This document shows, in pieces, positions 1 to 14,043 of a stretch of DNA of 24,000 bases. A program made the position numbers and the translations under genes. Source of the DNA: Aestuariivirga sp. (GTDB lineage: Bacteria; Pseudomonadota; Alphaproteobacteria; Rhizobiales; Aestuariivirgaceae); NCBI GenBank assembly GCA_043782835.1, contig JAYWAB010000196.1:2019-26018 (forward strand), read 5' to 3'. Under the pieces are notes generated by a model, which did not search any database, was not told the origin of the DNA, and saw only the letters and a list, made by a program, of their open reading frames with translations. The first letter of the stretch is position 1; the number at the start of each line of letters is the position of its first letter.

Positions 1-1215
1 TTTGTGAACCGAAAAAATGAAGTTGACCGTCGTGTCTTTGAACTTCTTTCTGAAAAATTCAAGCTATTCGAAGGTGTGTTTGGTGCCAGCGATGAGGTAT
101 TGGGCGCAATTGAGTCGGGCGTAGATTTTGAGAAGCGTATCAATGGCATTTACCAAAAGTGCCGCCAGCCCGATGAAATCAAGCTGGCATTTGATCAATT
201 GCAACTCGAGCTCAATCTCGAGATTAGCGCAGCGATGAATGAGACAAATCGTAAGCTGCTGGAAAATTTTGATGACGAGGTGCGCGATAAACTCAAAGTT
301 CGCGATGCGGATGCGAAAGTCTATCTTGATCGGTTCGAAAAGACATTGATGCGGATCACGCAACACGAACTTTCTGACCATGCAAATTTTATGAATGGTG
401 CGACCTTTAAATTGGAGTCACACCCGTCATGGACGCTGCCCACCCACGTCCCTCTTGGGCTTTACGAACTCCCACGCAGAACGGGCGAAGCACATTTCTA
501 CCGATTGACACACCCCTTAGGAGAGGCCGTCGTTTCGCGCGCCAAAGTCAGACAGCTCGAACCAGCGGAAGTCATTTTTGACTACAATGCCTATGAGGGC
601 ACGGTCGCAATACTCAAACCTTATGTAGGGCAGTCTGGGTGGATTGTTTGTACTCAGCTAAGTGTCGAGGCGCTAGACACTTCAGAAGATCACCTCTTAT
701 TGGTGGGCAGACAAGACTCTGCGCACGGTGGCGTTGACCTCCCGCCTGCTGTGATTGCCCGCATGTTGTCTCTTCCTGCAAAATCAGGAGCAAGTTGGAG
801 TTCTGCCGATGAAATTGAGAGCGATGCCCAACAACAGCTGAATAAGGCACAAGCAACTATTCAGGGCGAAATATCTGAGCGTAATGCGGCCTTCTTCTCG
901 ACCGAGGCTGACAAGCTGGATGGATGGGCGGATGATCTCAAGGTAGGTCTAGAGCGCGAAATCAAGGAAGTTGACCGGCTGATCAAAGAAGCGCGCAGAG
1001 CTGCAACAACAGCATTGAGCTTGGAGCAAAAGCTCGACATGCAGAAAAAAATAAAGGCGCTGGAAGCAACAAGGAACACCAAACGACGCAATCTATTTGA
1101 CGCTCAGGATGAAATCGAGAAGCAAAGGGCGGACTTGATTGCAAAGATTGAGGGCAAGCTTGAACAGCGAGTCGAAGTCAGCAAGTTATTTTCAATCCGA
1201 TGGAGGGTTCAGTGA
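1..1215 (+). CDS. C-terminal ~400 aa of a large SNF2/helicase-family protein (5' end outside window)
   Basis: The frame is open from nt 1, so the GTG at 4 is probably internal. The segment VDRRVFELLSEKFKLFEGVFGASDEVLGAIESGVDFEKRI, followed by a long charged coiled-coil tail (LEREIKEVDRLIKEARRAA...DAQDEIEKQRADLIAKIE), matches my recollection of the region after the helicase-C domain in bacterial SNF2-type helicases found beside mod/res genes. No ATPase motifs fall inside the window, so the family call is by recollection only. Confidence 0.55.
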   Translation, partial: FVNRKNEVDRRVFELLSEKFKLFEGVFGASDEVLGAIESGVDFEKRINGIYQKCRQPDEIKLAFDQLQLELNLEISAAMNETNRKLLENFDDEVRDKLKVRDADAKVYLDRFEKTLMRITQHELSDHANFMNGATFKLESHPSWTLPTHVPLGLYELPRRTGEAHFYRLTHPLGEAVVSRAKVRQLEPAEVIFDYNAYEGTVAILKPYVGQSGWIVCTQLSVEALDTSEDHLLLVGRQDSAHGGVDLPPAVIARMLSLPAKSGASWSSADEIESDAQQQLNKAQATIQGEISERNAAFFSTEADKLDGWADDLKVGLEREIKEVDRLIKEARRAATTALSLEQKLDMQKKIKALEATRNTKRRNLFDAQDEIEKQRADLIAKIEGKLEQRVEVSKLFSIRWRVQ

Positions 1216-1400
1216 CAAAATCTGGCAACACGCCATCACAATTGTTGGCGCAGAAATTTGCAGAAAAACTTGCGGCGAGTGGGCTAGTTCGAAAGGAAAA
1301 TCAGGACAAACTGGCTGAAAAAATTGCTGAAGGAAAGATGGCGATGGCCGACTGGCGACTTGAAATTGAACTGGCAGCAGGTGTTGGAGGTGCTAAATGA
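1200..1400 (+). CDS. small hypothetical protein (62-66 aa), helical/charged
   Basis: The ORF overlaps the upstream stop (1213-1215). Its stop overlaps the next ATG (ATGA at 1397-1400). The in-frame GTG at 1212 is preceded by GGAGGG (1202-1207) and forms a GTGA overlap with the upstream stop, so 1212 may be the true start. No recognisable domain. Confidence 0.45.
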   Translation: MEGSVTKSGNTPSQLLAQKFAEKLAASGLVRKENQDKLAEKIAEGKMAMADWRLEIELAAGVGGAK

Positions 1401-2545
1401 ATGCACCTGTGTCACTAAAAGCACTGACACTGAAATCCTTTCGCGGTTCCACGGCGACATTCAAGCTGGCCTTCGAGAAGGATCGAAAGCTCACTCTCGT
1501 TTATGGTGAGAATGGCTGCGGCAAAACCACAATCTGCGACGCATTTGAATTGCTGGCAGTGGAAAAAATTGGTTCTCTCGAAAACAAGGGAATGGGAGCT
1601 GGACTCGACAAGTACTGGCCTTCGGCTGGGCAGAAGCCGGAAGACCTAGAGATTCTTTTGGAAACTACAGCGGGCCACTGCGCTGGTCGCTTCGTCAACA
1701 AGAAGCTCACAATAAATCCTGCAAACGGCAAGCCGAAAATTGAGCTGCTGCGTCGCAAGCAAATTCTTGACCTGATTGAAGCACAGCCGAACAAGCGTTA
1801 CGAAGCGATAAAGGCGTTTATCGACATCGATCTGTTTGAGCAGTCGGAGAAAACGCTCCGAGAACTCGCAAAAAGCCTACCCGATGACAGCAAACGCGCC
1901 AAGGAACGGGAAGGTGAAAGTCTGACGACACTTGCTGGGTTTTTTGATGCTGCCGGCAAGCCTTCGGGCCACAATCCGGTATCGTGGGCAAAAGAATTGC
2001 TAAAGGCGACTGCGGAACAGTATGCGGCAGACATCGCAACAATAAAGAAGTTGTCCAGTCTTTTTGACGATCTTGAAAAGCTGCGGCAGCGAATTTCTGA
2101 CAGTTCACAAGAGGCATTCCAGTGCGCCGCTCAGCTGAAGGATGCCGAGACAGCCGTCGAAATTGCATTGGAAGCCTCCAAAGGTACTGGTGACGGCGAG
2201 TTGCTGGCACTGTTCGATGCGGGTCGCCACTACCTTGAAAAGCATCCTGATCATTCTGCATGTCCGTTGTGTGATAGTGCGGAGAAAATTGGGGGCCTAT
2301 TAGACCGCATTCAGTCAGGTTTGGGTTTGCTTGCCGAAGTCAATAAGGCAACCCAAACGCGGAGAGGTGCTCAGACCAAAGTCGATCAGGCGAACACGCT
2401 GTCCAACGGTGTGCAACTTGAATTTGCCAAGAAGCGGGTACAACGCTCAATAAGGCATTCGCCTCGCACAAGCGAATTCCAGAAAAGGTCCTTAAGAAAG
2501 AATTGGGCGATGAATATGAAGCTGAAATATCAGGCTTTGTTCTAG
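1397..2545 (+). CDS. SMC/Rad50-like (AAA_13/15/23-type) ATPase, N-terminal half only; apparently truncated or frameshifted
   Basis: GGAGG at 1386-1390 lies before the ATG at 1397. The N-terminus LKALTLKSFRGSTATF...LTLVYGENGCGKTTICDAFELL carries a Walker A motif (nt 1505-1531). A long alanine/charged helical region follows, then a CPLC motif (nt 2261-2272) resembling a Rad50/RloC zinc hook. No Walker B, ABC signature or D-loop follows. The last ~35 codons (RVQRSIRHSPRTSEFQKRSLRKNWAMNMKLKYQALF) look like out-of-frame sequence. Confidence 0.6.
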   Translation: MNAPVSLKALTLKSFRGSTATFKLAFEKDRKLTLVYGENGCGKTTICDAFELLAVEKIGSLENKGMGAGLDKYWPSAGQKPEDLEILLETTAGHCAGRFVNKKLTINPANGKPKIELLRRKQILDLIEAQPNKRYEAIKAFIDIDLFEQSEKTLRELAKSLPDDSKRAKEREGESLTTLAGFFDAAGKPSGHNPVSWAKELLKATAEQYAADIATIKKLSSLFDDLEKLRQRISDSSQEAFQCAAQLKDAETAVEIALEASKGTGDGELLALFDAGRHYLEKHPDHSACPLCDSAEKIGGLLDRIQSGLGLLAEVNKATQTRRGAQTKVDQANTLSNGVQLEFAKKRVQRSIRHSPRTSEFQKRSLRKNWAMNMKLKYQALF

Positions 2546-3561
2546 AAAACGCGAAGTCTGTGATTCAGCTCGCTAGACCAGACTACAACGCCGTTAGTGC
2601 TGCTGCCCGACTGGTCATTGATGAATCTCGAAAGCGCCCCACAGAAATACTCAAGCTTGAGAGGCTTGGACTTTCTGACATGTTATTCTTGGGGGGCCAG
2701 CGAATTCTGTTCTACTCAGACAAACTCAAGCTTGTTGACGGCGAATATGTTGCAGGAGAACCGTTGACTAGTATCTGGGAAGATATTCTTTCCAATAACT
2801 TACACAACGAAGGTGGCATGGAGTTTCCAAAAGGAAAGAAGCCAGAAGCGTTGATAAAACGTTGCATGGAACTTTCCACCGAAAAAGGTGACCTTATTCT
2901 AGATTCATTTGGCGGTTCTGGCACCACAGGCGCAGTTGCCCATAAGATGGGCCGTCGTTGGGTTATGGTGGAATTGGGTGAGCATTGCCATACGCACATC
3001 ATACCGCGCCTGAAAAAAGTGATTGATGGTGTCGACAAGGGTGGCGTGACCGAAGCCACGGACTGGAAGGGCGGTGGCGGCTTCCGCTATTTCAAGCTTG
3101 CACCGTCATTGCTGGAGAGGGATCGGTTTGGCCGAGACGTAATCAGCAAGGACTATAATGCCGCCATGCTCGCCGAGGCCATGTGCAAGCTGGAAGGTTT
3201 CACCTATCAACCCAGCGACACTCTCTATTGGAATCAAGGTTTTTCCTCCGAGCGGGATTTCATTTACGTCACCACGCAAACGCTTTCTGCTGATCAATTG
3301 GCTGATTTGAGCGAAGAAGTGGGCAGCGAACGTTCACTTCTGGTTTTGTGTTCTGCCTTTCGAGGCCATGTAAATTCGTGGCCCAATCTCACGGTTAAGA
3401 AGATACCTAACTCCGTTCGTAACAAATGCGAATGGGGCCATGATGACTATAGTTTGAATGTGCAAAACCTGCCGCAAGCGCCCGAAGTACCAACCGAAAC
3501 GCTCTCATCCAAACGCGCCGCACCCAATCAGGACGACCTGTTCACTGACGGTGCGATATGA
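2503..3561 (+). CDS. Type III Mod-like (beta-class N6/N4) DNA methyltransferase, C-terminal portion only (lacks DPPY/NPPY motif IV half); likely pseudogene or fusion remnant
   Basis: Contains FPKGKKPEALIKRCMELSTEKGDLILDSFGGSGTTGAVAHKMGRRWVMVELGE, which includes AdoMet-binding motif I (nt 2903-2932), plus a conserved-looking C-terminal domain (GGGGFRYFKLAPSLLERD...). No (D/N)PPY motif occurs in this ORF or in any frame of 1397-2900 that I could see. The only starts are the TTG at 2503 or the ATG at 2680, and neither has a clear SD. The stop overlaps the res ATG (ATGA at 3558-3561). Confidence 0.65.
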   Translation: MGDEYEAEISGFVLENAKSVIQLARPDYNAVSAAARLVIDESRKRPTEILKLERLGLSDMLFLGGQRILFYSDKLKLVDGEYVAGEPLTSIWEDILSNNLHNEGGMEFPKGKKPEALIKRCMELSTEKGDLILDSFGGSGTTGAVAHKMGRRWVMVELGEHCHTHIIPRLKKVIDGVDKGGVTEATDWKGGGGFRYFKLAPSLLERDRFGRDVISKDYNAAMLAEAMCKLEGFTYQPSDTLYWNQGFSSERDFIYVTTQTLSADQLADLSEEVGSERSLLVLCSAFRGHVNSWPNLTVKKIPNSVRNKCEWGHDDYSLNVQNLPQAPEVPTETLSSKRAAPNQDDLFTDGAI

Positions 3562-6215
3562 CTGAGCGCATCGCCAATGGCATCGCCGGACGCTTGAGCC
3601 TGCGCCCACCGCAGCAACAATCCCTCGATATTCTTCAGCGCATCACCGAGATTGCTCCGCCGCAAAAAAACATCGACATTGACGCGGCATTGGCCGCCAT
3701 CGCCAAAGAATATCCCAGCGTTACCAGCTTTGAGCGCGAATTCCTTTCGCTCTGCTTTGCCTTGGCCACAGGTGTTGGCAAGACACGGTTGATGGGCGCA
3801 TTCATTGCTTACCTCCACAATGCCCACGGCTTTCGCAACTTCTTCGTGCTGGCCCCAAATCTGACGATCTATGGCAAGCTGATTGGCGACTTCACGCAGA
3901 ACAACCCGAAATATGTTCTGAAGGGTATCCAGGAATTTGCCATTTCGCCGCCTGTGATCACCACGGGCGACAACTTCGAACGCCATCTTGCCAGCGGTGG
4001 CAGCTTGTTCCCGACCACAATCAACATCTTCAACATTTCCAAGATCAATTCCGAAGTGCGCGGCGGGCGTTCACCCAAAATGCGCAGCTTCCGAGAGGAA
4101 ATTGGCGAAAGCTATTTCGATTATCTGGCAGGGCTTGATGACCTTGTGTTGATCATGGACGAGTCTCATCGCTATCGCGCTTCTGCCGGTATCCGCGCCA
4201 TCAATGAGCTTAAGCCCGTGCTGGGACTGGAACTGACAGCCACGCCATTTGTGGAATCCACTAGAGGGCCAATGCCTTTCCAAAATGTGATTTATGATTA
4301 TCCATTGCGTCGCGCCATGGAAGACGGATTTGTGAAGGAACCAGCCGTTGTCACCCGCGAAAATTTCGTGAGCATTGGCAAGTCGCCGGAGACTATTCAA
4401 GAGATCAAGCTGCAAGACGGCGTTCGCCTGCATGAAAGTGTGAAGGTGGAGCTTGAAACCTATGCCCGCAATTCGGGTGAGCGGATCGTCAAGCCCTTCA
4501 TGCTGATTATCGCTCGAGACACAACTCACGCCGCTGAACTTCTTGCCATCATCAAGAGCAAGGATTTCTTCGAAGGCCGCTATGCCGAAAAGGTAATCCA
4601 AGTCGATTCAACGACCAAGGAAGAGGAAACGATTGAGCGGCTACTCAAAGTCGAACACTCGGACGAGCCAACGGAAATCGTTATCCATGTGAACATGCTA
4701 AAAGAAGGTTGGGATGTGACCAACCTCTACACCATCGTTCCCTTGCGTGCCGCCAATGCGCGGACGTTGATTGAACAGTCCATTGGGCGCGGCCTTCGCC
4801 TGCCTTATGGCAAGCGCACAGGCGTCGAGGCCGTAGACACATTGAGTATCGTGGCCCATGACCGCTTTCAGGAGATTGTGGACGAAGCGCGGAAGCCCGA
4901 CTCCATCATACAAATGAAGACGATCATCCTGAAGGATGACGCAGCGGCAGAAAATCCGACGACTGTTGTTTCCAATCCGAAACTGTTGGATGATTTTGGA
5001 CTGGGGACAGAAAGTTCTCACGGTTCACTCCAAGAAGGTTCAACGCCACCAATCTTCAATCTCGAAGAACAAAAAATCGCGCAGTTGGCCTATGAGGAAA
5101 TCCGTAAGCTTGAAACGCTGCCCAGCTCCAGAGAGTTGAGCAATCCGGAACAACAGGCAAAGATCATAGAAGCTGTGCAAAGCCGCTGGCAGGTTCCGCA
5201 GTTGGAACTGGATGGCATCGTGACTAAGCCTGATTTCTCACGGATTGTAGCGAGATCAGTTGAGCTTGTGCAGAGACAGACAATTGATATTCCGCGCATT
5301 CTAGTCGTGCCACGCGGCGAAGTGAAGGCGGGCTTCAAGCCGTTCAAGTTGGATTTGCGCGGGTTGAATTACGAAGTCCCAGATCAAACGCTGCTTTCAC
5401 AAACCTTGCGGACAGGTGAAATCAGCAGGATCAGTTCAACGGTTGGCAACGTCAACGAAACGCGTCTCGAAGATTTCATCGTAAGTGGCCTGATAGACTT
5501 CGATGATGTGGCCTATGATGAACATGCCGAGCTTCTCTATGAACTCGCCGGTCAAGTCACAAGCCACTTTGTTTCTCGGCATACTGAAAGCGGCGCACGC
5601 AAGATTCTACAAGTCTATCGCAAGGAAATTTCCAAATTTGTCCACGCGCAGATGCAACAGCATTATCTTGCCGATGGAAGTGTCGAATATGATGTGAAAG
5701 TGTCGCGAGGCTTCACGGCGCTCAAGCAAAGTGCATACACCGCGAATGTCGGAGATACGTTAGATTTCCGAACCTCACCGACCGATAAGAGCAACATGGC
5801 GCGGTATGTCTTTTCAGGATTTAAAAAGTGCCTTTATGACTTCCAGAAATTCCAGTCTGATGCCGAGCGAAGGCTTGCCATCATTCTCGACCGTGAAACT
5901 GAGAAGTGGTTCAAGCCCGCCAAGGATCAATTCCAGCTCTACTATCGGCGCGGAATGGATGACATTCCGTACCAGCCGGATTTTGTCGCCGAATCAAAGT
6001 CGGGCATATCCATGTTGGAACCAAAGTCGACGGCAGAGCTGGATGATCTGGAAGCCAGGGCGAAAAAAGACGTGGCAATGACATGGTGCGGCCACGCCTC
6101 TGCTCATGCAAAATCGCATGGTGGGAAGGCTTGGACCTATGCGGTTATTCCTCACAATGTCATCGCGGAAAACATGACACTGGACGGGCTGGTGAAGGCC
6201 TATTCTACAGTTTGA
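3558..6215 (+). CDS. res: Type III restriction endonuclease Res-like subunit (SF2 DEAD/DEAH helicase plus C-terminal PD-(D/E)xK nuclease)
   Basis: 885 aa. Motif I is ALATGVGKTR (nt 3771-3785). Motif II is LIMDESHR (DESH at nt 4158-4169). A late helicase motif reads EGWDVTNLYTIVPLR...QSIGRGLR. The C-terminal YQPDFVAE...MLEPK (nt 5976-6026) fits a PD...ExK nuclease core. The gene is translationally coupled to the upstream mod fragment. Confidence 0.85.
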   Translation: MTERIANGIAGRLSLRPPQQQSLDILQRITEIAPPQKNIDIDAALAAIAKEYPSVTSFEREFLSLCFALATGVGKTRLMGAFIAYLHNAHGFRNFFVLAPNLTIYGKLIGDFTQNNPKYVLKGIQEFAISPPVITTGDNFERHLASGGSLFPTTINIFNISKINSEVRGGRSPKMRSFREEIGESYFDYLAGLDDLVLIMDESHRYRASAGIRAINELKPVLGLELTATPFVESTRGPMPFQNVIYDYPLRRAMEDGFVKEPAVVTRENFVSIGKSPETIQEIKLQDGVRLHESVKVELETYARNSGERIVKPFMLIIARDTTHAAELLAIIKSKDFFEGRYAEKVIQVDSTTKEEETIERLLKVEHSDEPTEIVIHVNMLKEGWDVTNLYTIVPLRAANARTLIEQSIGRGLRLPYGKRTGVEAVDTLSIVAHDRFQEIVDEARKPDSIIQMKTIILKDDAAAENPTTVVSNPKLLDDFGLGTESSHGSLQEGSTPPIFNLEEQKIAQLAYEEIRKLETLPSSRELSNPEQQAKIIEAVQSRWQVPQLELDGIVTKPDFSRIVARSVELVQRQTIDIPRILVVPRGEVKAGFKPFKLDLRGLNYEVPDQTLLSQTLRTGEISRISSTVGNVNETRLEDFIVSGLIDFDDVAYDEHAELLYELAGQVTSHFVSRHTESGARKILQVYRKEISKFVHAQMQQHYLADGSVEYDVKVSRGFTALKQSAYTANVGDTLDFRTSPTDKSNMARYVFSGFKKCLYDFQKFQSDAERRLAIILDRETEKWFKPAKDQFQLYYRRGMDDIPYQPDFVAESKSGISMLEPKSTAELDDLEARAKKDVAMTWCGHASAHAKSHGGKAWTYAVIPHNVIAENMTLDGLVKAYSTV

Positions 6216-6277
6216 CATTGTATTGATTGGTACATGCACAAAAGGGGGAAGTGGTTACTTCAATTCTGCCATGCCAC

Positions 6278-6568
6278 CTAGTTGCTGCCAGATAGGTGTT
6301 TCCGCACTCGCCGCCATTTGCCCTGCTCGTAGGTGTCAGACCGATACCACGCATTCTGTTCCTCAGTGAATGCCGCCTCCGCCGGATCGGCCGGATGGCT
6401 TCGCCTCAGTTCACCTGCCAATCGTTCAATCTCGACCTTGGGTATGAGCAGTGGCCGAATGTAAAGTTCATTGAGGAACCAAATGAGAGTTCCCCAGATT
6501 GGGGCAGTGCAAATGACAACTAAACCCCACCACCAATCGTGCCAACCCATGTGCTGTATTCCCTGCAT
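6278..6568 (-). CDS. small hypothetical membrane protein (one predicted TM helix)
   Basis: 96 aa. A Trp-rich hydrophobic segment, WHDWWWGLVVICTAPIWGTLIWFL, is followed by a charged tail. The gene is divergent from the XRE gene. No recognisable domain. An alternative start at Met7 is possible. Confidence 0.4.
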   Translation of the reverse strand: MQGIQHMGWHDWWWGLVVICTAPIWGTLIWFLNELYIRPLLIPKVEIERLAGELRRSHPADPAEAAFTEEQNAWYRSDTYEQGKWRRVRKHLSGSN

Positions 6569-6586
6569 TATCTGAATTTAAGATAA
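6568..6586. repeat. inverted repeat TTATCT-N7-AGATAA in the divergent intergenic region; possible operator
   Basis: Perfect 6-bp arms (6568-6573 and 6581-6586). The repeat abuts the start codon of the minus-strand ORF and lies 47 nt upstream of the XRE start. Its function is inferred only. Confidence 0.3.
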
Positions 6587-6632
6587 GCTGAAAATCAGAT
6601 TACCGAAAGCCCATTGATCAGGCGGGCATTAG

Positions 6633-6872
6633 GTGAACAAGACACTGGGTTCAAAACGGCACGTGGCGCTCATCGCGTTTCTGAAAGACAGGCGAAAGGC
6701 GGCTGGCTTGTCACAAGAAGAGCTGGCAGAGCACATGGGAGAGTATCAGTCATTCGTGGCGCGCATGGAAAGCGGTCAGCGGCGAGTGGACGTGGTGGAG
6801 TTCATTGCCCTCGCAGAGGTCTTGAATTTTAATGCCGCAAAGGCCTTGGCGAATATCGCCAAGGCCGAATAG
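6633..6872 (+). CDS. XRE/Cro-C1 family helix-turn-helix transcriptional regulator
   Basis: 79 aa with a GTG start. LKDRRKAAGLSQEELAEHMGEYQSFVARMESGQRRVDVVEFIALAEVL is a typical HTH_3 pattern (GLSQxELA...ESGxR). Confidence 0.75.
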   Translation: MNKTLGSKRHVALIAFLKDRRKAAGLSQEELAEHMGEYQSFVARMESGQRRVDVVEFIALAEVLNFNAAKALANIAKAE

Positions 6873-6970
6873 TGAAAGTCAGTTGCGGCCGGGGACCTTG
6901 CACGGAGGCAAATGTGCTTAAGGCTCTGCCAGCCGCGCTATACTGGGTCGCTTCATGACCTCAGAGGCAG

Positions 6971-7402
6971 TCAGGCTCGGGCGCTAAAAACCCGCACGCG
7001 CGATACTGCGTCAAGTTGCTTGTACAGATAAAACAGACACTGGCGATAGTTGAACGTCACAGTAGTTTCTTCGCCTTCGTCGTCGATATACTCCGCAGCG
7101 AATGTCCTCCCACCATATCCCACTCGGATGACCCGAAAACAACTAGGGTTTCGGTGAACCGAAAACATCATGCGCTGCACTGACGCGTTGTAAAGTGCCA
7201 ACATGGTTTCGCGACTTGGGTCATCTTCGTATGCCTCCAGTCCGTCACCAGCAAACCGGCGATCTTCATCGAGTTCAAGCAAGAAGCTGGCGAATGTATC
7301 GTCAGCGCCATCAAAACAATCGAAGCTCAGTTCTCCGATAAATAAGTCATCTTCATTCGGGTCATCTTCAGCGAAATTACTTTCAATAAAATTTTCTTCC
7401 AT
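6971..7402 (-). CDS. hypothetical protein with extremely acidic N-terminal half
   Basis: 143 aa. ATG at 7402-7400 with the purine-rich SD region AAGGTAAGAAGGTAAG upstream on the minus strand. The N-terminal ~75 aa are rich in D/E (MEENFIESNFAEDDPNEDDLFIGELSFDCFDGADD...LELDEDRRF...EAYEDD). The gene is divergent from the integrase. Confidence 0.5.
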   Translation of the reverse strand: MEENFIESNFAEDDPNEDDLFIGELSFDCFDGADDTFASFLLELDEDRRFAGDGLEAYEDDPSRETMLALYNASVQRMMFSVHRNPSCFRVIRVGYGGRTFAAEYIDDEGEETTVTFNYRQCLFYLYKQLDAVSRVRVFSARA

Positions 7403-7634
7403 GCTGCTTACCTTCTTACCTTACTGTTGAGTGAGCCGATCCGCTTGGACGTGCTTGCGTCACAACGTCGACAGACACATCGTACTTTCATGCGCCACGC
7501 TGGCGCAAGTTTGGACAGCAGCACGCATCGCAGAATTCAATGCCAAACGAGGACATATGATCCGTGGACTGATGAATATGCTTTCTTTTGGATGCAGTGC
7601 AGTTATTTCGAGTGTCGAAAGGGAGCCTTGAGCC

Positions 7635-8819
7635 ATGCCAACACTGCGACTGATAAAATCGATCATCGATAAGATTCCACTCACGGACAGCGGCCAGTGC
7701 CTGTACCGCGACACTGATCTGACCGGATTTGGACTCTGCGTGGGCACACGCAGAAAGACATATTTCGTTGAAGGGCGTCTTAACAACCGCCGTGTCCGTC
7801 AGGCTTACGGGCAATACCCGTTGATGACCGTGGAACAAGCGCGGAGCGAAGCCATGGGCAGGCTTGCTTCGCTGATGCAGGGCATCAACCCCGAAGCCGC
7901 CAATAGAGCCAAGAAGGCGCGGGACATGACATTAGGCGAGGCTTTTGCCGCTTATTTTGAGGCGAAGCCAAATCTGGCCGCGCCGACGATGGACAACTAT
8001 CAACGCTCGCGTGACCTTTATCTAAAAGATTGGCTGAAGTTGTCACTGCGCGAAATCACACGCGACTTGGTGTTAGCGAAGCACCGTCAGATTGGCAGGG
8101 ATCATGGCGGTATAACCGGCAACAACGCGATGAGGCACTTTCGGGCTGTCTTCAATTTTGTGGGCTCGCTCCACGATGAATACCCACCGTGCCCTACGGT
8201 TGTCCTGACCAGAACGCGGTCATGGGTGCCACAGCACCGTCGTCGAACTTTGGTTGCCGCTCACCAGTTACCCGCGTGGTGGCGCGCGGTGATGGCTGAG
8301 GAACCTCACGCGAGAGATTTTTTGTTAGTGGCGATTTTCACAGGTATGAGGCGCAACGAAATTTCTAAATTGAAGTGGGAACATATCGACCTTGTAGGTA
8401 AAACGTTGAACATTCCGCGCACAAAAAATGGTGACCCGCTTGAACTGCCATTGTCTGAATTTCTCTGCGGCGTAATCGCGCGACGTCGTGAATTGGTTGG
8501 CCAATGCGAATACGTGTTTCCCGGACCGGGAGCCACAAAACACATCGTCGAGACGAAGCGGTTCCTGAGCCGCGTTGTGTGGAATTCGGGCGTGAAGTTT
8601 ACTCTGCACGATTTGCGCAGGAGTTTTATCACAATCGCTGAGTCACTGGATATTTCAACCTACGGATTGAAACGCTTGCTGAACCACAGGGCTGACAACG
8701 ATGTAACGGCTGGCTACATTGTGATCGGGGCTGAGAGACTGCGTGGGCCCGTGGAACGTATAGCTGCACAGATATTGGAGTTAGCCAATGCCCAAGAAAA
8801 AGCCCCAATCGGAACTTGA
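7635..8819 (+). CDS. int: tyrosine recombinase / phage-type integrase (P4-like, N-terminal DUF4102 arm-binding domain)
   Basis: 394 aa. GGGAG lies upstream of the ATG. The N-terminus LYRDTDLTGFGLCVGTRRKTYFVEGRLNNRRVRQAYGQYPLMTVEQARSEA is DUF4102-like. The catalytic pattern is FTGMRRNEISKLKW (R), TLHDLRRSF (HxxR), LLNHR (H) and VTAGYI (Y). Confidence 0.9.
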   Translation: MPTLRLIKSIIDKIPLTDSGQCLYRDTDLTGFGLCVGTRRKTYFVEGRLNNRRVRQAYGQYPLMTVEQARSEAMGRLASLMQGINPEAANRAKKARDMTLGEAFAAYFEAKPNLAAPTMDNYQRSRDLYLKDWLKLSLREITRDLVLAKHRQIGRDHGGITGNNAMRHFRAVFNFVGSLHDEYPPCPTVVLTRTRSWVPQHRRRTLVAAHQLPAWWRAVMAEEPHARDFLLVAIFTGMRRNEISKLKWEHIDLVGKTLNIPRTKNGDPLELPLSEFLCGVIARRRELVGQCEYVFPGPGATKHIVETKRFLSRVVWNSGVKFTLHDLRRSFITIAESLDISTYGLKRLLNHRADNDVTAGYIVIGAERLRGPVERIAAQILELANAQEKAPIGT

Positions 8820-9504
8820 TGACATTGTACCACAACACCTTTTGGATAGTGCGGCAAAATTCGCCAATGTGAATTTTGGTGTCCACCTTGAAGAAGCAAA
8901 TGTGGGAGATGAGAATCTACAGGCAGCAGGTGTCTCAAGGTCGGTTTTGGAAACAGTCCTCCTCGCAATTATTCAAGGTCACCCCGATCCGAAAGACCAA
9001 CAGCGCACCGATCTAAGCCGATTAAAGTGCGCCGTCGAGGCGCTAACAAGTCGCGAGGCTGCTTGGACACCGTGGATGGACCCTGAGCGTCGGTATATTG
9101 AAATGGCGTTACAGATAGCACAACGGCACGGTAAGCTGCGAGAAGTCATGAGTGTTGGAACGCGTCACGGCAGCAAGAAGGACAAATTCACGCCGTATGT
9201 TCGTTTGGCAAAGGAACAAATAGACAAAAAGAAAATCGAGGAGTTCACAGTTGCTGATGAAGAGAACGTGAAGAACATTGCTGCGAAATTTTCTGGAAAA
9301 TACTATACTAAGCAAGCAGCGCTGAAGAATGACTTAAATCCCAAGAACGCATATCATAACTCCAACTTTCCTGAGATTTGGCATCGCATCACAATGCGAC
9401 ACGATTTTTTGGCTGAAAGTCTCGAATTGCAAACGGCGGATCGTATTTTGCGGGAGTTTGGCAATTGGGGACTGAACTACAAAATTCGACTACCATGGGA
9501 CTAG
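8788..9504 (+). CDS. hypothetical protein
   Basis: 238 aa. GGAG at 8777-8780 lies 7 nt before the ATG. The ORF overlaps the integrase 3' end by 32 nt. No domain recognised. Confidence 0.5.
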   Translation: MPKKKPQSELDDIVPQHLLDSAAKFANVNFGVHLEEANVGDENLQAAGVSRSVLETVLLAIIQGHPDPKDQQRTDLSRLKCAVEALTSREAAWTPWMDPERRYIEMALQIAQRHGKLREVMSVGTRHGSKKDKFTPYVRLAKEQIDKKKIEEFTVADEENVKNIAAKFSGKYYTKQAALKNDLNPKNAYHNSNFPEIWHRITMRHDFLAESLELQTADRILREFGNWGLNYKIRLPWD

Positions 9505-9593
9505 CAGCCAGCCAATCAAGCGAACAGTTTGAATAATCCTTCCCGTGTTGCTAGCAGCAATTTCATTGAGAGTTCGAAGCCAAGCATCACTAC

Positions 9594-9851
9594 TTGGAGT
9601 CGAACAAGATGGAAAAAGAAAAGAAGAAGCGTGGTCCCGTAGTTTCTACCCACCACGCACTGAGTGAGCGCCACGCAGCTATCCGCTGTGGCGTTTCCTA
9701 CAGGACTATGATCCGCAATCGCGAGAAGGACATTGGCCCGCCTTACTTGCAGGCAGGCGGCAAGGGCAAGCGCGTCACTTATCCGTTAAGGCAACTTGAG
9801 GCTTGGATTACGGACAATTTGCTTGGCGCAAAGTCCAAGGTGGAGGCGTGA
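9594..9851 (+). CDS. AlpA/excisionase-family (HTH_17, MerR-like) DNA-binding protein
   Basis: LSERHAAIRCGVSYRTMIRNREKDIGPPYLQAGGKGKRVTYPLRQLEAWI fits the excisionase/AlpA HTH followed by a wing and the xxLxxWI ending. The first ATG is at 9609, and the TTG at 9594 is the ORF-track start. The position between int and the primase gene is typical. Confidence 0.6.
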   Translation: MESNKMEKEKKKRGPVVSTHHALSERHAAIRCGVSYRTMIRNREKDIGPPYLQAGGKGKRVTYPLRQLEAWITDNLLGAKSKVEA

Positions 9852-9853
9852 CC

Positions 9854-10042
9854 ATGGCCGACACAAATCCAGCAGATATGCCAGCTCAAATCAGCGAAGA
9901 TTCTGAAGCGAAATTCGTTCAACCTGCGAAGCGCCCTGCGTCTAATGTTGCACCTGACTCATGCGCAACTTGTAGCACCCACCACACCTGCGAATTGATG
10001 AAGCTGAAGCTCGCCTTCAAGCCATCTGCCCAGTCGCGCTAG
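9854..10042 (+). CDS. small hypothetical protein (62 aa)
   Basis: The ATG at 9854 lies 2 nt after the previous stop. It fills the gap before the primase-helicase gene. No domain. Coding status is uncertain. Confidence 0.3.
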   Translation: MADTNPADMPAQISEDSEAKFVQPAKRPASNVAPDSCATCSTHHTCELMKLKLAFKPSAQSR

Positions 10043-10063
10043 TTTTGCAAGGAACACGCCAAA

Positions 10064-12037
10064 ATGTCCTTAAAAATTGACGCGCAAGTCATTGCAGATG
10101 GCCTCGGCAACCCAAAGCGCAGTGGCAGAGGCTTCATGGTGCGCTGTCCTGCCCACGAAGACAATAAACCCTCGCTTTATGTTGCTGACGGCATTGACGA
10201 CAGCATCGTCCTGAAATGCCATGCTGGCTGCACGTTCCAAGAAGTGCGGTCAACGCTCCAGGCGCGAGGGTTATGGCCTTCCTCGGTAACGGGTAAAGAC
10301 AAGGGGCAGGCTAAGGCCGCAAAGCCCGCAGAAGAGTATGAAATTGTCTCGCCTGTTCCAAGTGACGCGCCACCTATAGAATATCAAAAAGTTGTGGGCT
10401 TCGAACCAACTCATAAATATGCATACCGCGATGCACTGGGGCAGGTGACATTCATTGTCGCCCGCCAAGACAAAGAAAACGGCAAAGAAATTCGACCTGT
10501 AATCTATACCCGCAACAAGACTACTGGCGCGTTCCAGTGGCTTGCCAAGGGCTTGCCCGCGCCGCGCCCGTTATACGGCCTCGATAAGTTGGCAAAGCGT
10601 GCAGACGCTCCTGTGATCCTTGTGGAAGGCGAGAAAACCGCGAATGCTGCGGCCAAGCAACTGAGTGAATATGTGGCAGTCACTTGGGCAGGCGGTGCGA
10701 AGGGGATTCAGTATTGCGACTTTTCCGCGCTGAGGGGCCGAGACGTAACGCTGTGGCCAGACAATGATGACGCTGGCAAGGCTGCCATGGCATCGCTTGT
10801 GCCGATCCTGAAACAGCACGGTGCAAAGAGGATCAGGCAAGTTCAGATTCCTGACAGCCTGCCCAAAAAGTGGGATTTGGCCGATCCCATTCCTGAGGGG
10901 ATCGACATAAATGCGATGCTAACAAACGCCTCAGAAGCGAACACTGGTTTGCGGTCGCATGTGCTCACATCATCCGCGCTTTCACGACTCAACATTCCTC
11001 CCCGCGAATTCATCGTTGAGCCGTTTTTACCAAAGGCCAGCCTCAGCATGATCTACGCTGAACGCGGTATAGGCAAAACGTGGCTGACGCTCAGTCTGGC
11101 GGTAGCAGTAAGCCATGGCGATGACTTTCTTGCCTTTCCTGTTTCAAAGGCACGGCATGTTTTGTACATCGACGGTGAGATGGCGCTCTATGATCTGAAG
11201 TCGCGCATTATAGCTCTGGATGACGGCGACAATGATCACTTACACCTGTTGCCATCAGAAAGCCTTTTCCGAATGGATCGCCCGCTCAACATCAACGCCG
11301 TTGAAGATCAGCAACGCATTGTTGAGGTGATCCAAACAATGATTGCCGAAGGAAGCCCGCCGGAGCTTATTGTTTTGGACAACTTGTCCTCGCTATCAGC
11401 TGGCACTGACGAAAATAACAACTCGGAGTTGGACAAACTTTTGCACTGGTTGGTAGGAATGCGCCACCTCAACCTCGCCATTCTGCTTGTGCATCATGCG
11501 GGAAAATCTGGCGACCAGCGCGGTGCATCGCGCCGTGAGGACTTGTTGGACACGTCAATAAAGCTCAGCCGCCCCAAGCCCCAGAAAGGCCCCAAGGGCG
11601 GTGATAATAATGATGACGAGCCGGACGAAGAACATGACGGTGCATTCTTCGAACTTGAGTTTGTAAAAACGCGGGGTATCCGGCCAATGCCGCATAAATT
11701 CTTCATGCGCTTGGTTGAAGGTGAAAACGGCAAGCTGGAATGGTCCACAGAGACGGGCAGCGGCGCAACATCGTTGGACAAGATGCTCAAGCGGATGGCG
11801 CTGAAGCCATACAGCAGCCAGCTGGATTTGGCGAACGAGATGAAGCGCTCTACGGGCCTGATCAGCCAGAATTGCACAAAGTTGAGAGACAAGGGCTTCT
11901 TGGGCGAAGGCTTGAGAGTCACAAGGGAAGGGCGCATTCACTTGATTGCTCTTTGGCCGGAACTCGAAAAAGATTTTTTGAAACAGGAAACGCTACCATT
12001 TCCGAAGCAGCAGTTGCCCGACGACGACACGATTTAG
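10064..12037 (+). CDS. bifunctional primase-helicase: zinc-binding N-terminus, Toprim domain, RecA-like AAA_25/RepA-type ATPase and a C-terminal winged-helix-like region
   Basis: 657 aa. Zinc motif CPAHEDNKPSL...LKCHAGC. Toprim motifs VILVEGEKTANAA and LWPDNDDAGKAAM. Walker A is AERGIGKTW (nt 11061-11080). Walker B-like LIVLDNLSSL, then LLVHHAGKSGDQRG. An acidic linker GGDNNDDEPDEEHD follows. The C-terminal LDLANEMKRSTGLISQNCTKLRDKGFL looks like a wHTH. Confidence 0.8.
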   Translation: MSLKIDAQVIADGLGNPKRSGRGFMVRCPAHEDNKPSLYVADGIDDSIVLKCHAGCTFQEVRSTLQARGLWPSSVTGKDKGQAKAAKPAEEYEIVSPVPSDAPPIEYQKVVGFEPTHKYAYRDALGQVTFIVARQDKENGKEIRPVIYTRNKTTGAFQWLAKGLPAPRPLYGLDKLAKRADAPVILVEGEKTANAAAKQLSEYVAVTWAGGAKGIQYCDFSALRGRDVTLWPDNDDAGKAAMASLVPILKQHGAKRIRQVQIPDSLPKKWDLADPIPEGIDINAMLTNASEANTGLRSHVLTSSALSRLNIPPREFIVEPFLPKASLSMIYAERGIGKTWLTLSLAVAVSHGDDFLAFPVSKARHVLYIDGEMALYDLKSRIIALDDGDNDHLHLLPSESLFRMDRPLNINAVEDQQRIVEVIQTMIAEGSPPELIVLDNLSSLSAGTDENNNSELDKLLHWLVGMRHLNLAILLVHHAGKSGDQRGASRREDLLDTSIKLSRPKPQKGPKGGDNNDDEPDEEHDGAFFELEFVKTRGIRPMPHKFFMRLVEGENGKLEWSTETGSGATSLDKMLKRMALKPYSSQLDLANEMKRSTGLISQNCTKLRDKGFLGEGLRVTREGRIHLIALWPELEKDFLKQETLPFPKQQLPDDDTI

Positions 12038-12714: not shown

Positions 12715-13704
12715 CTAAGTTGCGAGATGACGGTGTAATCTAAAAAGTGCTTCATCAAAGATTGAAGCTGCCGTGTGCGATAATTCGCTGGATTTAAAGC
12801 TCTCTTCCGGCGCAATCCAGACTTGGATAATGTCTGAGAGAATTTCGGCTGCGGCACTATCTTGTCGAAGCTTGAAAACATCAAGACATTTGAATAGCCT
12901 CTCTGCAACCGGAGGATATTCGGCGCTTATTCTTGACTGGTCATGTTCAAATAAAGCAACCCAGATTAAACCTAACCCGTTTGCAATAGCTTGCCGTTCG
13001 AGTTGCAGTTCTGCTTTATCGGGTTTTTCGCCTACAGCTCGGTTAGGGGCAGCTTGCAGGCCACCCTTCAACCATTTTGTAGCTTCGAGATCAGCCTCAA
13101 GTTCACAATCTTGATGCGAAAGAAATTCATTTTTTTGTCGAGCAGCGTGTCGTAACTGGACGTGCGCGATCTCATGACGTAAAATCCAATCAAGAGCCCA
13201 CGTAAAGAACTTCAAACCTAATTCATCGTCGGAACCTGCTGGCGGTGATGGATCAATTCGTGCGGCCCATGCGGGCCAATATTCGAGCGAAGCGACTTGG
13301 GATGGTATATCTTGACTGCAAAATCGGCGAGCAAGTTCGAGGCAGTCCAGGCCTTTTTCAAGTTCATGGTCAGCGTCTATTTCTAGACGGTCCATCTTGT
13401 TTCTCTTTCCTTCGAACATACGCCGCGCCAAGCGGGCAGCTCCTTGGGAAAATGCCCAAAGGCTCGCAATGCCGTTCCAAGTAATGCGTACCGGACCAGC
13501 GGGATCAATGACCATGAATTCGGCGCGAGCATTTCCCTTACCAAGCGGAACCTCTTCGATCTGGAGGGCGAGATCTGCAACGCTCACTCCCGCTCCCGCT
13601 TTGGCCGCAGCAAATCTTGACTCGATCAAGGGTAGAAAGACATTGAAGAGGGGACTGATAGGCAAAGGCAGATTCCAAGTCATGACAAGAGTGAGTGGGA
13701 ACAT
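12715..13704 (-). CDS. HExxH zinc-metallopeptidase-like protein (possibly peptidase U49/Lit-like)
   Basis: 329 aa. WILRHEIAHVQLRH carries the HEIAH motif (encoded at nt 13162-13176, minus strand), followed by acidic residues (ELEADLEA) that could supply a third ligand. The size and the central position of the motif resemble Lit-type phage-exclusion proteases. That assignment is from memory and is unverified. Confidence 0.6.
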   Translation of the reverse strand: MFPLTLVMTWNLPLPISPLFNVFLPLIESRFAAAKAGAGVSVADLALQIEEVPLGKGNARAEFMVIDPAGPVRITWNGIASLWAFSQGAARLARRMFEGKRNKMDRLEIDADHELEKGLDCLELARRFCSQDIPSQVASLEYWPAWAARIDPSPPAGSDDELGLKFFTWALDWILRHEIAHVQLRHAARQKNEFLSHQDCELEADLEATKWLKGGLQAAPNRAVGEKPDKAELQLERQAIANGLGLIWVALFEHDQSRISAEYPPVAERLFKCLDVFKLRQDSAAAEILSDIIQVWIAPEESFKSSELSHTAASIFDEALFRLHRHLAT

Positions 13705-13819: not shown

Positions 13820-13895
13820 TGGTGCTGCTTGCAGGATTCGAACCTGCGACCCCCGCATTACGAATGCGGTGCTCTACCAACTGAGCTAAAGCAGC
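13820..13895 (-). tRNA. tRNA-Thr (anticodon CGU), CCA encoded
   Basis: The reverse complement is GCTGCTTTAGCTCAGTTGGTAGAGCACCGCATTCGTAATGCGGGGGTCGCAGGTTCGAATCCTGCAAGCAGCACCA. It folds as a clean cloverleaf. The acceptor stem is GCTGCTT/AAGCAGC and the D stem is GCTC/GAGC. The anticodon stem is CCGCA/TGCGG with loop TTCGTAA. The T stem is GCAGG/CCTGC with loop TTCGAAT. Confidence 0.92.
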
Positions 13896-14002: not shown

Positions 14003-14043
14003 TTACGAATGCGGTGCTCTACCAACTGAGCTAAAGCGGCCTA
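14003..14043 (-). repeat. direct repeat of the 5' half of tRNA-Thr (positions 1-38 plus 3 upstream nt); att-like scar or tRNA pseudogene fragment
   Basis: 14003-14043 matches 13858-13898 at 40 of 41 positions. The single A/G difference falls at tRNA position 3. Identity starts exactly at the 3' edge of the anticodon loop. The ~20 nt to the left (13982-14002) keep only patchy similarity to the 3' half (GCGACTCCCC vs GCGACCCCCG, TTCAAA vs TTCGAA). Confidence 0.85.

Follow-up and report, generated by a model that had tools for sequence, protein, structure and literature searches.

Type III restriction-modification (R-M) systems hemimethylate an asymmetric site, and their cleavage requires ATP and two unmethylated sites in inverse orientation. 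In the Type III enzymes EcoP1I and EcoP15I, the Res subunit does not recognize specific DNA by itself, and restriction depends on a Mod2Res complex. RloC proteins, which are 658–897 amino acids (aa) long, combine an ABC ATPase with a zinc hook and a HEPN anticodon nuclease (PMC2610378), and Hma operons have been documented as hotspots for defence genes (PMC11232893). We analysed a stretch of 24 000 nucleotides (nt) from Aestuariivirga sp. (contig JAYWAB010000196.1, positions 2019 to 26 018 of the forward strand), referred to below as the window. Its first 6215 nt hold open reading frames (ORFs) for an SNF2 helicase, a mini-protein, an SMC/Rad50-type ATPase, a Mod methyltransferase and a Res protein. 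We conclude with high confidence that this locus is an inactivated remnant, situated on a tRNA-Thr island, of a widespread SNF2-linked Type III operon, and that one junction cut both the ATPase gene and mod.

A single junction truncates the ATPase gene and mod

The locus contains the following features:

1..1215, + strand: 3′ part of the SNF2 gene, last 404 codons; the ORF extends past the left edge of the window
1200..1400, + strand: mini-protein gene, 66 aa from the ATG at 1200 or 62 aa from the ATG at 1212
1397..2545, + strand: ATPase ORF, 382 aa; the true ATPase part (1397..2439) is followed by an out-of-frame tail (2440..2545)
1397..2439, + strand: 5′ fragment of the ATPase gene, codons 1–347 of about 770
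2439..2440, + strand: junction, at which ATPase codon ~347 is fused out of frame to the first base of mod codon 213
2440..2545, + strand: mod DNA read out of frame as the end of the ATPase ORF (35 codons), then a stop
2440..3561, + strand: 3′ fragment of mod, codons 213–585 (last 373 codons of a 585-aa Mod)
2503..3561, + strand: Mod ORF, 352 aa, with a TTG start at 2503; mod-derived DNA begins at 2440
3558..6215, + strand: res gene, 885 aa, intact

The initial annotation had described five consecutive same-strand ORFs linked by start-stop overlaps. These are present: a sequence check found ATGA overlaps at 1397–1400 and 3558–3561 and the ATG at 1200 or 1212 ahead of the SNF2 stop at 1215. Profile searches also bore out its domain labels, with a DrmD-like SNF2 protein for ORF1, an SMC/Rad50-type ATPase for ORF3, N6_N4_Mtase/MTase_III for ORF4 and ResIII/REase_III for ORF5, and its view that Res is intact agrees with the motifs and the near full-length alignment reported below. 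The claim that five intact, coupled genes form one operon had to be given up, because the ATPase and Mod ORFs are both fragments. Promoter and terminator scans of positions 1–7700 gave counts no higher than those in shuffled sequence and were uninformative on operon structure.

When proteins of relatives were compared with the window by tblastn, ATPase homology stopped at nt 2395–2431 and Mod homology began at nt 2440, which corresponds to residue 213 of a 588-aa Mod, in a different frame from the ATPase. Read in frame 1, positions 2440..2545 encode Mod sequence that is 95.7% identical at the aa level to the Mod of a sibling island (contig L087, see below), and the ATPase frame over the same positions shows no homology to the ATPase family. 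The 43-nt overlap between the two ORFs, from the TTG at 2503 to the stop at 2545, is a recombination scar and not a case of translational coupling. The junction is missing from the approximately 90% identical sibling and from all 15 ATPase-bearing relatives.

The ATPase ORF encodes 382 aa, compared with 767–808 aa in 15 of 15 neighbouring relatives with an ATPase and a family mode of 760–790 aa. The fragment aligns with residues 1–345 of the 767–808-aa relatives and matches only N-terminal parts of the profiles (Pfam AAA_23, SMC_N and AAA_15; PADLOC LmuB, 2e-11). Walker A, the ascending coiled coil and the CPLC zinc hook are retained, as is the beginning of the descending coil; missing are the signature motif, Walker B, the H-loop and the HEPN-like domain at the C terminus. 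Measured against RloC and PrrC, the window copy keeps Walker A and CPLC while everything after codon 347 is gone, so that it does not qualify as such a protein.

Mod is truncated from the other side. Its fragment covers only positions 134–217 of 221 of Pfam N6_N4_Mtase and only positions 310–560 of 575 of the PADLOC profile MTase_III PDLC03636 (3e-105). The target-recognition region, the S-adenosylmethionine-binding motif I (FGGSG) and the C-terminal domain are retained. The N-terminal 212 codons have been lost, including catalytic motif IV, which in relatives is present as DPPF (residue 75 in L001); a scan of the fragment for [DNS]PP[YFW] found no such motif and detected FGGSG. Mod measures 534–696 aa in 37 of 40 SNF2-bearing relatives. 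Profile coverage is full for intact homologues and partial for both window fragments, and the window ORF does not encode the complete beta-class N6-adenine Mod, with motifs IV and I, that characterizes Type III systems. Both truncations and the junction, like the intact sibling and the recurrent architecture described below, were observed directly.

A sibling island carries intact genes and a different cassette allele

The 90% identity cluster of the Mod fragment holds a 585-aa member, which led to the sibling island on contigs L087 and L088. Here the gene order is SNF2 (954 aa), mini-ORF (61 aa), ATPase (771 aa), HD protein (491 aa), a 173-aa protein, Mod (585 aa) and Res (885 aa). Both islands share the same backbone, with a DNA identity to L087 of 86.9% over window positions 1–1161 and 89.8% over 2439–6814. 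At the protein level, SNF2 is 90.8% identical up to about nt 1161 and Res is 95.7% identical. On the right, identity jumps from background to 58 of 60 positions exactly at 2440 (L087 8380), the first base of mod codon 213.

Between these regions, window positions 1162–2438 have no DNA similarity to L087, and the mini-ORF and ATPase products share only 35% and 43% aa identity with their L087 counterparts. The window carries a different cassette allele from L087. Because the sibling holds a different ATPase allele (43% aa identity), the left breakpoint in the donor ATPase cannot be defined at the nucleotide level. Similarity to the sibling fades gradually from about 50 nt before the SNF2 stop (window 1100–1215 versus L087 2884–2999), which suggests that cassettes in the slot are exchanged with the 3′ end of the SNF2 gene as the left arm for homologous recombination.

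The sibling slot between the ATPase gene and mod (L087 5672–7665) was also inspected. The 491-aa HD protein gave a weak PADLOC dGTPase match (2.6e-06), and the 173-aa protein matched the C-terminal part of the DarG model (1.8e-11). These two genes may be another embedded defence pair.

The junction is probably recent and is not an assembly artefact

Compared with L087, the ratio of non-synonymous to synonymous substitution rates (dN/dS) was 0.048 for Res, 0.098 for the Mod fragment and 0.063 for SNF2. These low ratios and the lack of further decay in these genes suggest a recent event.

The sequence comes from metagenome assemblies, which might lead one to suspect a mis-assembly or chimera. 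Three metagenome-derived assemblies of different samples and pipelines (two from ENA, one from Logan), all sampling the same strain, were 100% identical to the window over approximately 14 kb including the junction, and the same 382-aa and 352-aa products are called in each. This identity across the junction rules out mis-assembly, and we regard an artefactual truncation as next to impossible.

The SNF2-Mod-Res operon recurs with exchangeable accessory genes

We fetched 80 loci with Res relatives (57–69% identical, from many phyla). For 52 Res relatives at least 7 kb of sequence is available upstream, and 37 of these 52 have a DrmD-like SNF2 gene there. The interval between SNF2 and mod in 40 SNF2-bearing loci contains AIPR/AbiU (19/40), the mini-ORF/ATPase pair (15/40) and assorted other genes, among them the HD protein with the 173-aa protein and PLD-like genes. 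A second variable slot lies between mod and res.

The ATPase family itself was collected by an exhaustive HMMER search, which gave 711 homologues and 117 representative clusters at E ≤ 1e-30; a word-indexed protein search with the ATPase fragment, yielding 13 matches that were mostly fragments, was superseded by it. Among the best 150 of the 711 homologues, from which the evidence on gene context was drawn, the mini-ORF/ATPase pair was found in 21 of 21 loci examined, down to 25% identity. Wherever enough sequence is available, an SNF2 or large helicase gene precedes the pair and Mod or Mod-Res comes after it, and the pair always directly follows SNF2 or AIPR. Loci L002 and L007 consist of SNF2-Mod-Res alone, so the pair is optional.

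SNF2-Mod-Res with a slot of exchangeable accessory genes between SNF2 and mod is therefore a widespread and apparently unnamed operon type. The initial annotation had proposed an SNF2/~65-aa protein/zinc-hook ATPase/Mod/Res ensemble that it could not assign to a named system. As an architecture this is real and recurrent, and the pair between SNF2 and mod is not an insertion confined to one genome, as neighbourhood comparison of relatives made clear; the window copy, however, is not intact and the pair is optional. Its statement that the ensemble is unassigned also holds, since PADLOC and NCBIfam recognize only parts of it (MTase_III, REase_III and a DrmD-like helicase). No name for the ensemble turned up in PADLOC-DB v2, NCBIfam r20 or the literature searched, newer DefenseFinder and REBASE entries lying outside this scope.

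Several relatives were themselves incomplete. An independent decayed copy (L091 13–6057, L092 3–3944) has a 70-aa mini-ORF, a 776-aa ATPase, a truncated 361-aa Mod and no res; it adjoins the housekeeping genes metE/MTHFR, and L091 carries a 747-aa helicase-like gene before the mini-ORF. L018 has SNF2 fragments and no Mod, the Mod of L050 is split into 268 and 221 aa, and L042 has a 443-aa Mod. Erosion of this operon type seems to be common.

The mini-protein and the full-length ATPase family

Homologues of the mini-protein measure 58–73 aa and lie directly upstream of the ATPase gene in 16 of 18 loci checked. The pattern PS..LA..V.RL..GL...K(I/L)A.G.M..DW(K/R)LEI(D/E)L is common to them. The mini-protein of the window had no match in Pfam, NCBIfam or PADLOC. 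Judged by the ATGA overlap, the mini-protein gene is translationally coupled to the ATPase gene.

An AlphaFold2 model of the full-length homologue P0016 (predicted local distance difference test score, pLDDT, 90.8) gave Rad50 (7zr1), SMC (5xei) and Lamassu LmuB (9hqu) as top fold matches, and the full-length ATPase matched PADLOC LmuB at 9e-22. Pfam AAA_13 gave only faint, sub-threshold hits to full-length members, restricted to the P-loop, so that they do not belong to AAA_13. MADS was considered on account of mad3 and rejected, because this model of 374 aa is matched only by the ATPase head, and no other gene gave a mad match. Invariant residues in the family are the Walker A GxxGxGK, CPxC at the tip of the coiled coil, the Walker B DD and the H-loop His.

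The C-terminal domain contains an invariant R-N-x-x-G-x-H motif and an invariant Glu. By the published rule for HEPN domains, Rx4-6H, the Arg is followed by a polar residue, and a helix that comes earlier supplies an acidic one (PMC3710099); the motif of the ATPase family fits this rule. Modelled alone, the domain reached a pLDDT of 86.6. It had no significant fold match in the PDB, the best-superposing match being the HEPN protein 1wwp (probability 0.57, template modelling score 0.52, Foldseek E-value 0.65), and neither the Pfam search nor a profile search of PDB sequences returned anything. The full-length ATPases thus appear RloC-like, with a Rad50-type ABC head, a CPxC zinc hook and, probably, a C-terminal HEPN RNase domain.

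The SNF2 helicase and Res are intact

The full SNF2 gene encodes 954 aa, starts 1650 nt to the left of the window and is intact in the source contigs L081–L083. The part inside the window is DrmD-like, that is, of the SNF2/RapA-like type (PADLOC DrmD, 1.9e-33). A full-length homologue (L013) matched PADLOC DrmD at 3e-208 and NCBIfam DISARM_DrmD_b with 695 bits, below the cut-off of 950 bits. The HmaA hidden Markov model also matched SNF2 (2.8e-57), but only over the generic SNF2 core. In the C-terminal region of SNF2 within the window there are no Pfam domains of any kind and thus no NOV_C.

Res consists of a superfamily 2 (SF2) helicase-like motor followed by a C-terminal PD-(D/E)xK nuclease, the combination expected of a Type III Res (PADLOC REase_III PDLC03648, 2.4e-194; Pfam ResIII, 2.6e-20). 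We located GVGKT at residue 72, DESH at 201, QSIGRGLR at 407 and PD...EPK at 807, and residues 4–883 align with relatives of 891–900 aa. Its similarity to PRK15483, the enterobacterial model of Type III Res, is only weak. As in Type III systems, mod lies directly upstream of res with an ATGA overlap at 3558–3561, and relatives are arranged alike.

The operon is cargo of a tRNA-Thr island

The operon belongs to the cargo of an island of approximately 15.8 kb, and window positions 1–6215 form its cargo end. The integration site is as follows:

13820..13895, − strand: tRNA-Thr(CGT), island integration site (ARAGORN on L081)

The other end of the island is a diverged copy of the tRNA 3′ half about 2 kb to the left of the window, 320 nt upstream of the SNF2 start, with an identical 17-nt core, GACCCCCGCATTACGAA, and flanking similarity at L081 4431–4475. 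The GC content is 49–53% in the island and 56–60% in the flanking hemY-hemD-hemC-tsaD-gpsA-acs chromosome. Besides the operon, the island holds a helix-turn-helix (HTH) gene, a tyrosine integrase, a Toprim/AAA_25 primase-like gene and a Lit-like protease. There is no att repeat beside the integrase (~7430–7630); the tRNA-derived repeat sits upstream of SNF2.

In the middle of the island (window 7635–12037, + strand), a tyrosine integrase with an Arm-DNA-binding domain overlaps a 238-aa ORF, and a Toprim/DUF6371 and AAA_25 primase-helicase-like gene comes next; this is a backbone like that of a satellite or a replicative island. A highly acidic ORF of 143 aa (6971–7402, − strand), which lies between the HTH gene and the integrase, had no family match; at this position the sibling island has a 118-aa ORF with approximately 72% nt identity. 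The Lit-like protease (12715–13704, − strand; Pfam Peptidase_U49, 3.6e-13; PADLOC Lit, 5.6e-23) lies at the tRNA-proximal end, where L087 has a DUF2188 gene and small ORFs, which points to a second variable cargo site. Outside the island, at about 14003–14043 and approximately 145 nt to the right of the tRNA, lies a 41-nt near-perfect copy of the tRNA 5′ half. This may be a relic of an earlier integration.

Interpretation and alternative explanations

The data are best accounted for as follows. In the lineage of the window, the slot would have held the small-protein gene and an RloC-like ATPase gene. One illegitimate recombination would then have joined ATPase codon ~347 to mod codon 213, removing the C-terminal catalytic half and effector domain of the ATPase, further cargo if there was any, and the N-terminal 212 residues of Mod. 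As motif IV lay in the lost part of Mod, the locus is predicted to be no longer able to methylate. Since Res acts only together with Mod, restriction has most probably been lost too, without killing the host. The intact SNF2, mini-ORF and res genes would be leftovers of this recent inactivation. In intact relatives, Mod2-Res is expected to perform standard Type III restriction, with SNF2 as an auxiliary translocase, as in DISARM (DrmD), ARMADA (ArmA) and BREX type 3 (BrxHII). By analogy with PrrC and RloC, the mini-protein/ATPase pair would most likely serve as a second-line toxin linked to the R-M system.

Several points weigh against this account. The loss of function is deduced from sequence alone. 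SNF2, the mini-ORF and Res are intact and the Mod fragment shows no extra decay, which is in line with a very recent event, but residual activity would explain it as well. In principle, Mod could be provided in trans by a second mod gene located elsewhere in the genome. As positions 1162–2438 represent a different allele, a simple deletion and the import of an already truncated cassette look the same in these sequences. The HEPN assignment is weak, with a Foldseek E-value of 0.65 and no Pfam or PDB profile match, and the PrrC-like guard role is an analogy.

Could the five ORFs, as they stand, form an intact and functional, atypical Type III-like defence operon? Their common strand, the three overlapping junctions, the intact Res and the purifying selection on the Mod fragment and Res relative to the sibling would speak for it. 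Such an operon would nevertheless have to work with a Mod deprived of its first 212 residues and motif IV and with an ATPase that has neither Walker B, signature, H-loop nor C-terminal domain, and the sharp out-of-frame junction is absent from the approximately 90% identical sibling and from the 15 ATPase-bearing relatives; we therefore consider it very improbable. Hardly more plausible is that the truncated Mod still docks Res on DNA, giving a modification-independent restriction or translocation complex with SNF2. The fragment does begin almost exactly at the variable recognition region, most relatives aligning only from fragment residue ~113, and it keeps motif I and the C-terminal domain at a dN/dS of 0.098. 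However, the methyltransferase fold is split and motifs IV–VIII are lost, the sole in-frame start is the TTG at 2503 with no obvious coupling, and sequence-specific cutting without methylation would attack the host chromosome. Moreover, most of the branch predates the deletion, so that a low dN/dS along it is a poor guide to constraint today.

Two further proposals concern the intact relatives and leave the inactivation of the window locus untouched. The pair may be an autonomous Lamassu- or Abi-like module that sits in a recombination hotspot and acts independently of SNF2, Mod and Res. Unrelated cargo in the same slot (AIPR/AbiU in 19 of 40 loci, the HD and 173-aa proteins, PLD-like genes and others), the exchange of the pair allele between otherwise approximately 90% identical islands, and the precedent of Hma operons as defence-gene hotspots (PMC11232893) are in line with this idea. 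If the pair were autonomous, it should also turn up in other surroundings, yet among the 21 of 21 loci with the pair, drawn from the best 150 of 711 homologues, all with enough sequence belong to this operon type. We regard the proposal as possible but doubtful. Equally tentative is the opposite suggestion that intact relatives, for example L087 and L013, represent an undescribed, functionally interdependent Mod-Res/SNF2/adaptor/zinc-hook-HEPN system, in which the ATPase pair would be a dedicated guard, triggered by inhibition of the R-M/SNF2 complex or by its stalling on DNA. If this were true, the joint loss of the toxin domain and of the catalytic half of the methyltransferase could be a host-safe route to lose a coupled system.

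As an inactivated remnant, the window locus calls for a correction of its annotation, in that a single scar has produced both the 382-aa 'AAA ATPase' and the 352-aa 'DNA methylase', which are its two halves, and the strain probably lacks this restriction barrier. The natural allele swaps and natural knock-outs (window, L091/L092) could guide experiments.

Comparison with described systems

The best PADLOC match of the ATPase family is Lamassu LmuB, and its best fold matches are Rad50, SMC and LmuB, but the family has an extra C-terminal domain and sits in a Type III operon. Lamassu was rejected because no locus has an LmuA effector or a recognizable LmuC gene. In Hma operons, too, an SNF2 helicase occurs together with a methyltransferase and an ATPase, and further defence genes are inserted among those of the operon. 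They differ in the NOV_C nuclease domain of HmaA, in HmaB, a DUF1156 protein described as a 5-methylcytosine methyltransferase, in the DUF499 ATPase HmaC and in having no Res. As NOV_C, DUF1156 and DUF499 are absent here, Mod being of the N6_N4_Mtase type and the ATPase of the SMC/Rad50 type, Hma was also rejected.

DISARM class 1 and ARMADA resemble the family in having an SNF2/RapA-like helicase beside an adenine methyltransferase; the helicase of the family is DrmD-like by PADLOC but scores below the NCBIfam DrmD_b cut-off. In ARMADA, ArmA and ArmB are needed for defence, and ArmB has an NPPW motif at residue 971, unlike the Type III Mod described here. The family has no YprA/DUF1998 helicase (DrmA/B, ArmC), no phospholipase D (PLD)-type DrmC and no UvrD-type ArmD, and its effector is a Type III Res. 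DISARM was rejected because neither the island nor the operons of relatives contain ORFs or domains of DrmA, DrmB (DUF1998) or DrmC (PLD), and ARMADA because ArmC (a YprA-family helicase-nuclease) and ArmD (UvrD-like) are absent from the window and L081.

Full-length members of the ATPase family resemble RloC in having an ABC head split by a coiled coil with a CxxC hook, followed by a C-terminal domain of approximately 170 aa, and their size of 760–810 aa falls within the 658–897 aa of RloC. PrrC and a minority of RloC genes are embedded in R-M loci, like the ATPase family here. In contrast to RloC, the family does not show the spacing of the Arg-x3-Glu...His triad, and a partner gene of ~60 aa and an SNF2 neighbour are always present.

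The locus is a derivative of Type III R-M systems (EcoP1I/EcoP15I type). Mod precedes res with an ATGA overlap and is a beta-class N6_N4 methyltransferase with motif IV before and motif I after the recognition region, and Res joins an SF2 ResIII motor to a C-terminal PD-(D/E)xK nuclease. What the family adds to these systems is the upstream DrmD-like SNF2 helicase (37/52) and the accessory genes in the SNF2-mod and mod-res gaps. The inactivated remnant is ordinary in itself; its intact relatives form a variant of Type III R-M that recurs, is apparently unnamed and has a companion module resembling RloC. This operon type links Type III restriction to SNF2 helicases of the DISARM/ARMADA/BREX kind and to R-M-linked HEPN toxins of the PrrC/RloC kind.

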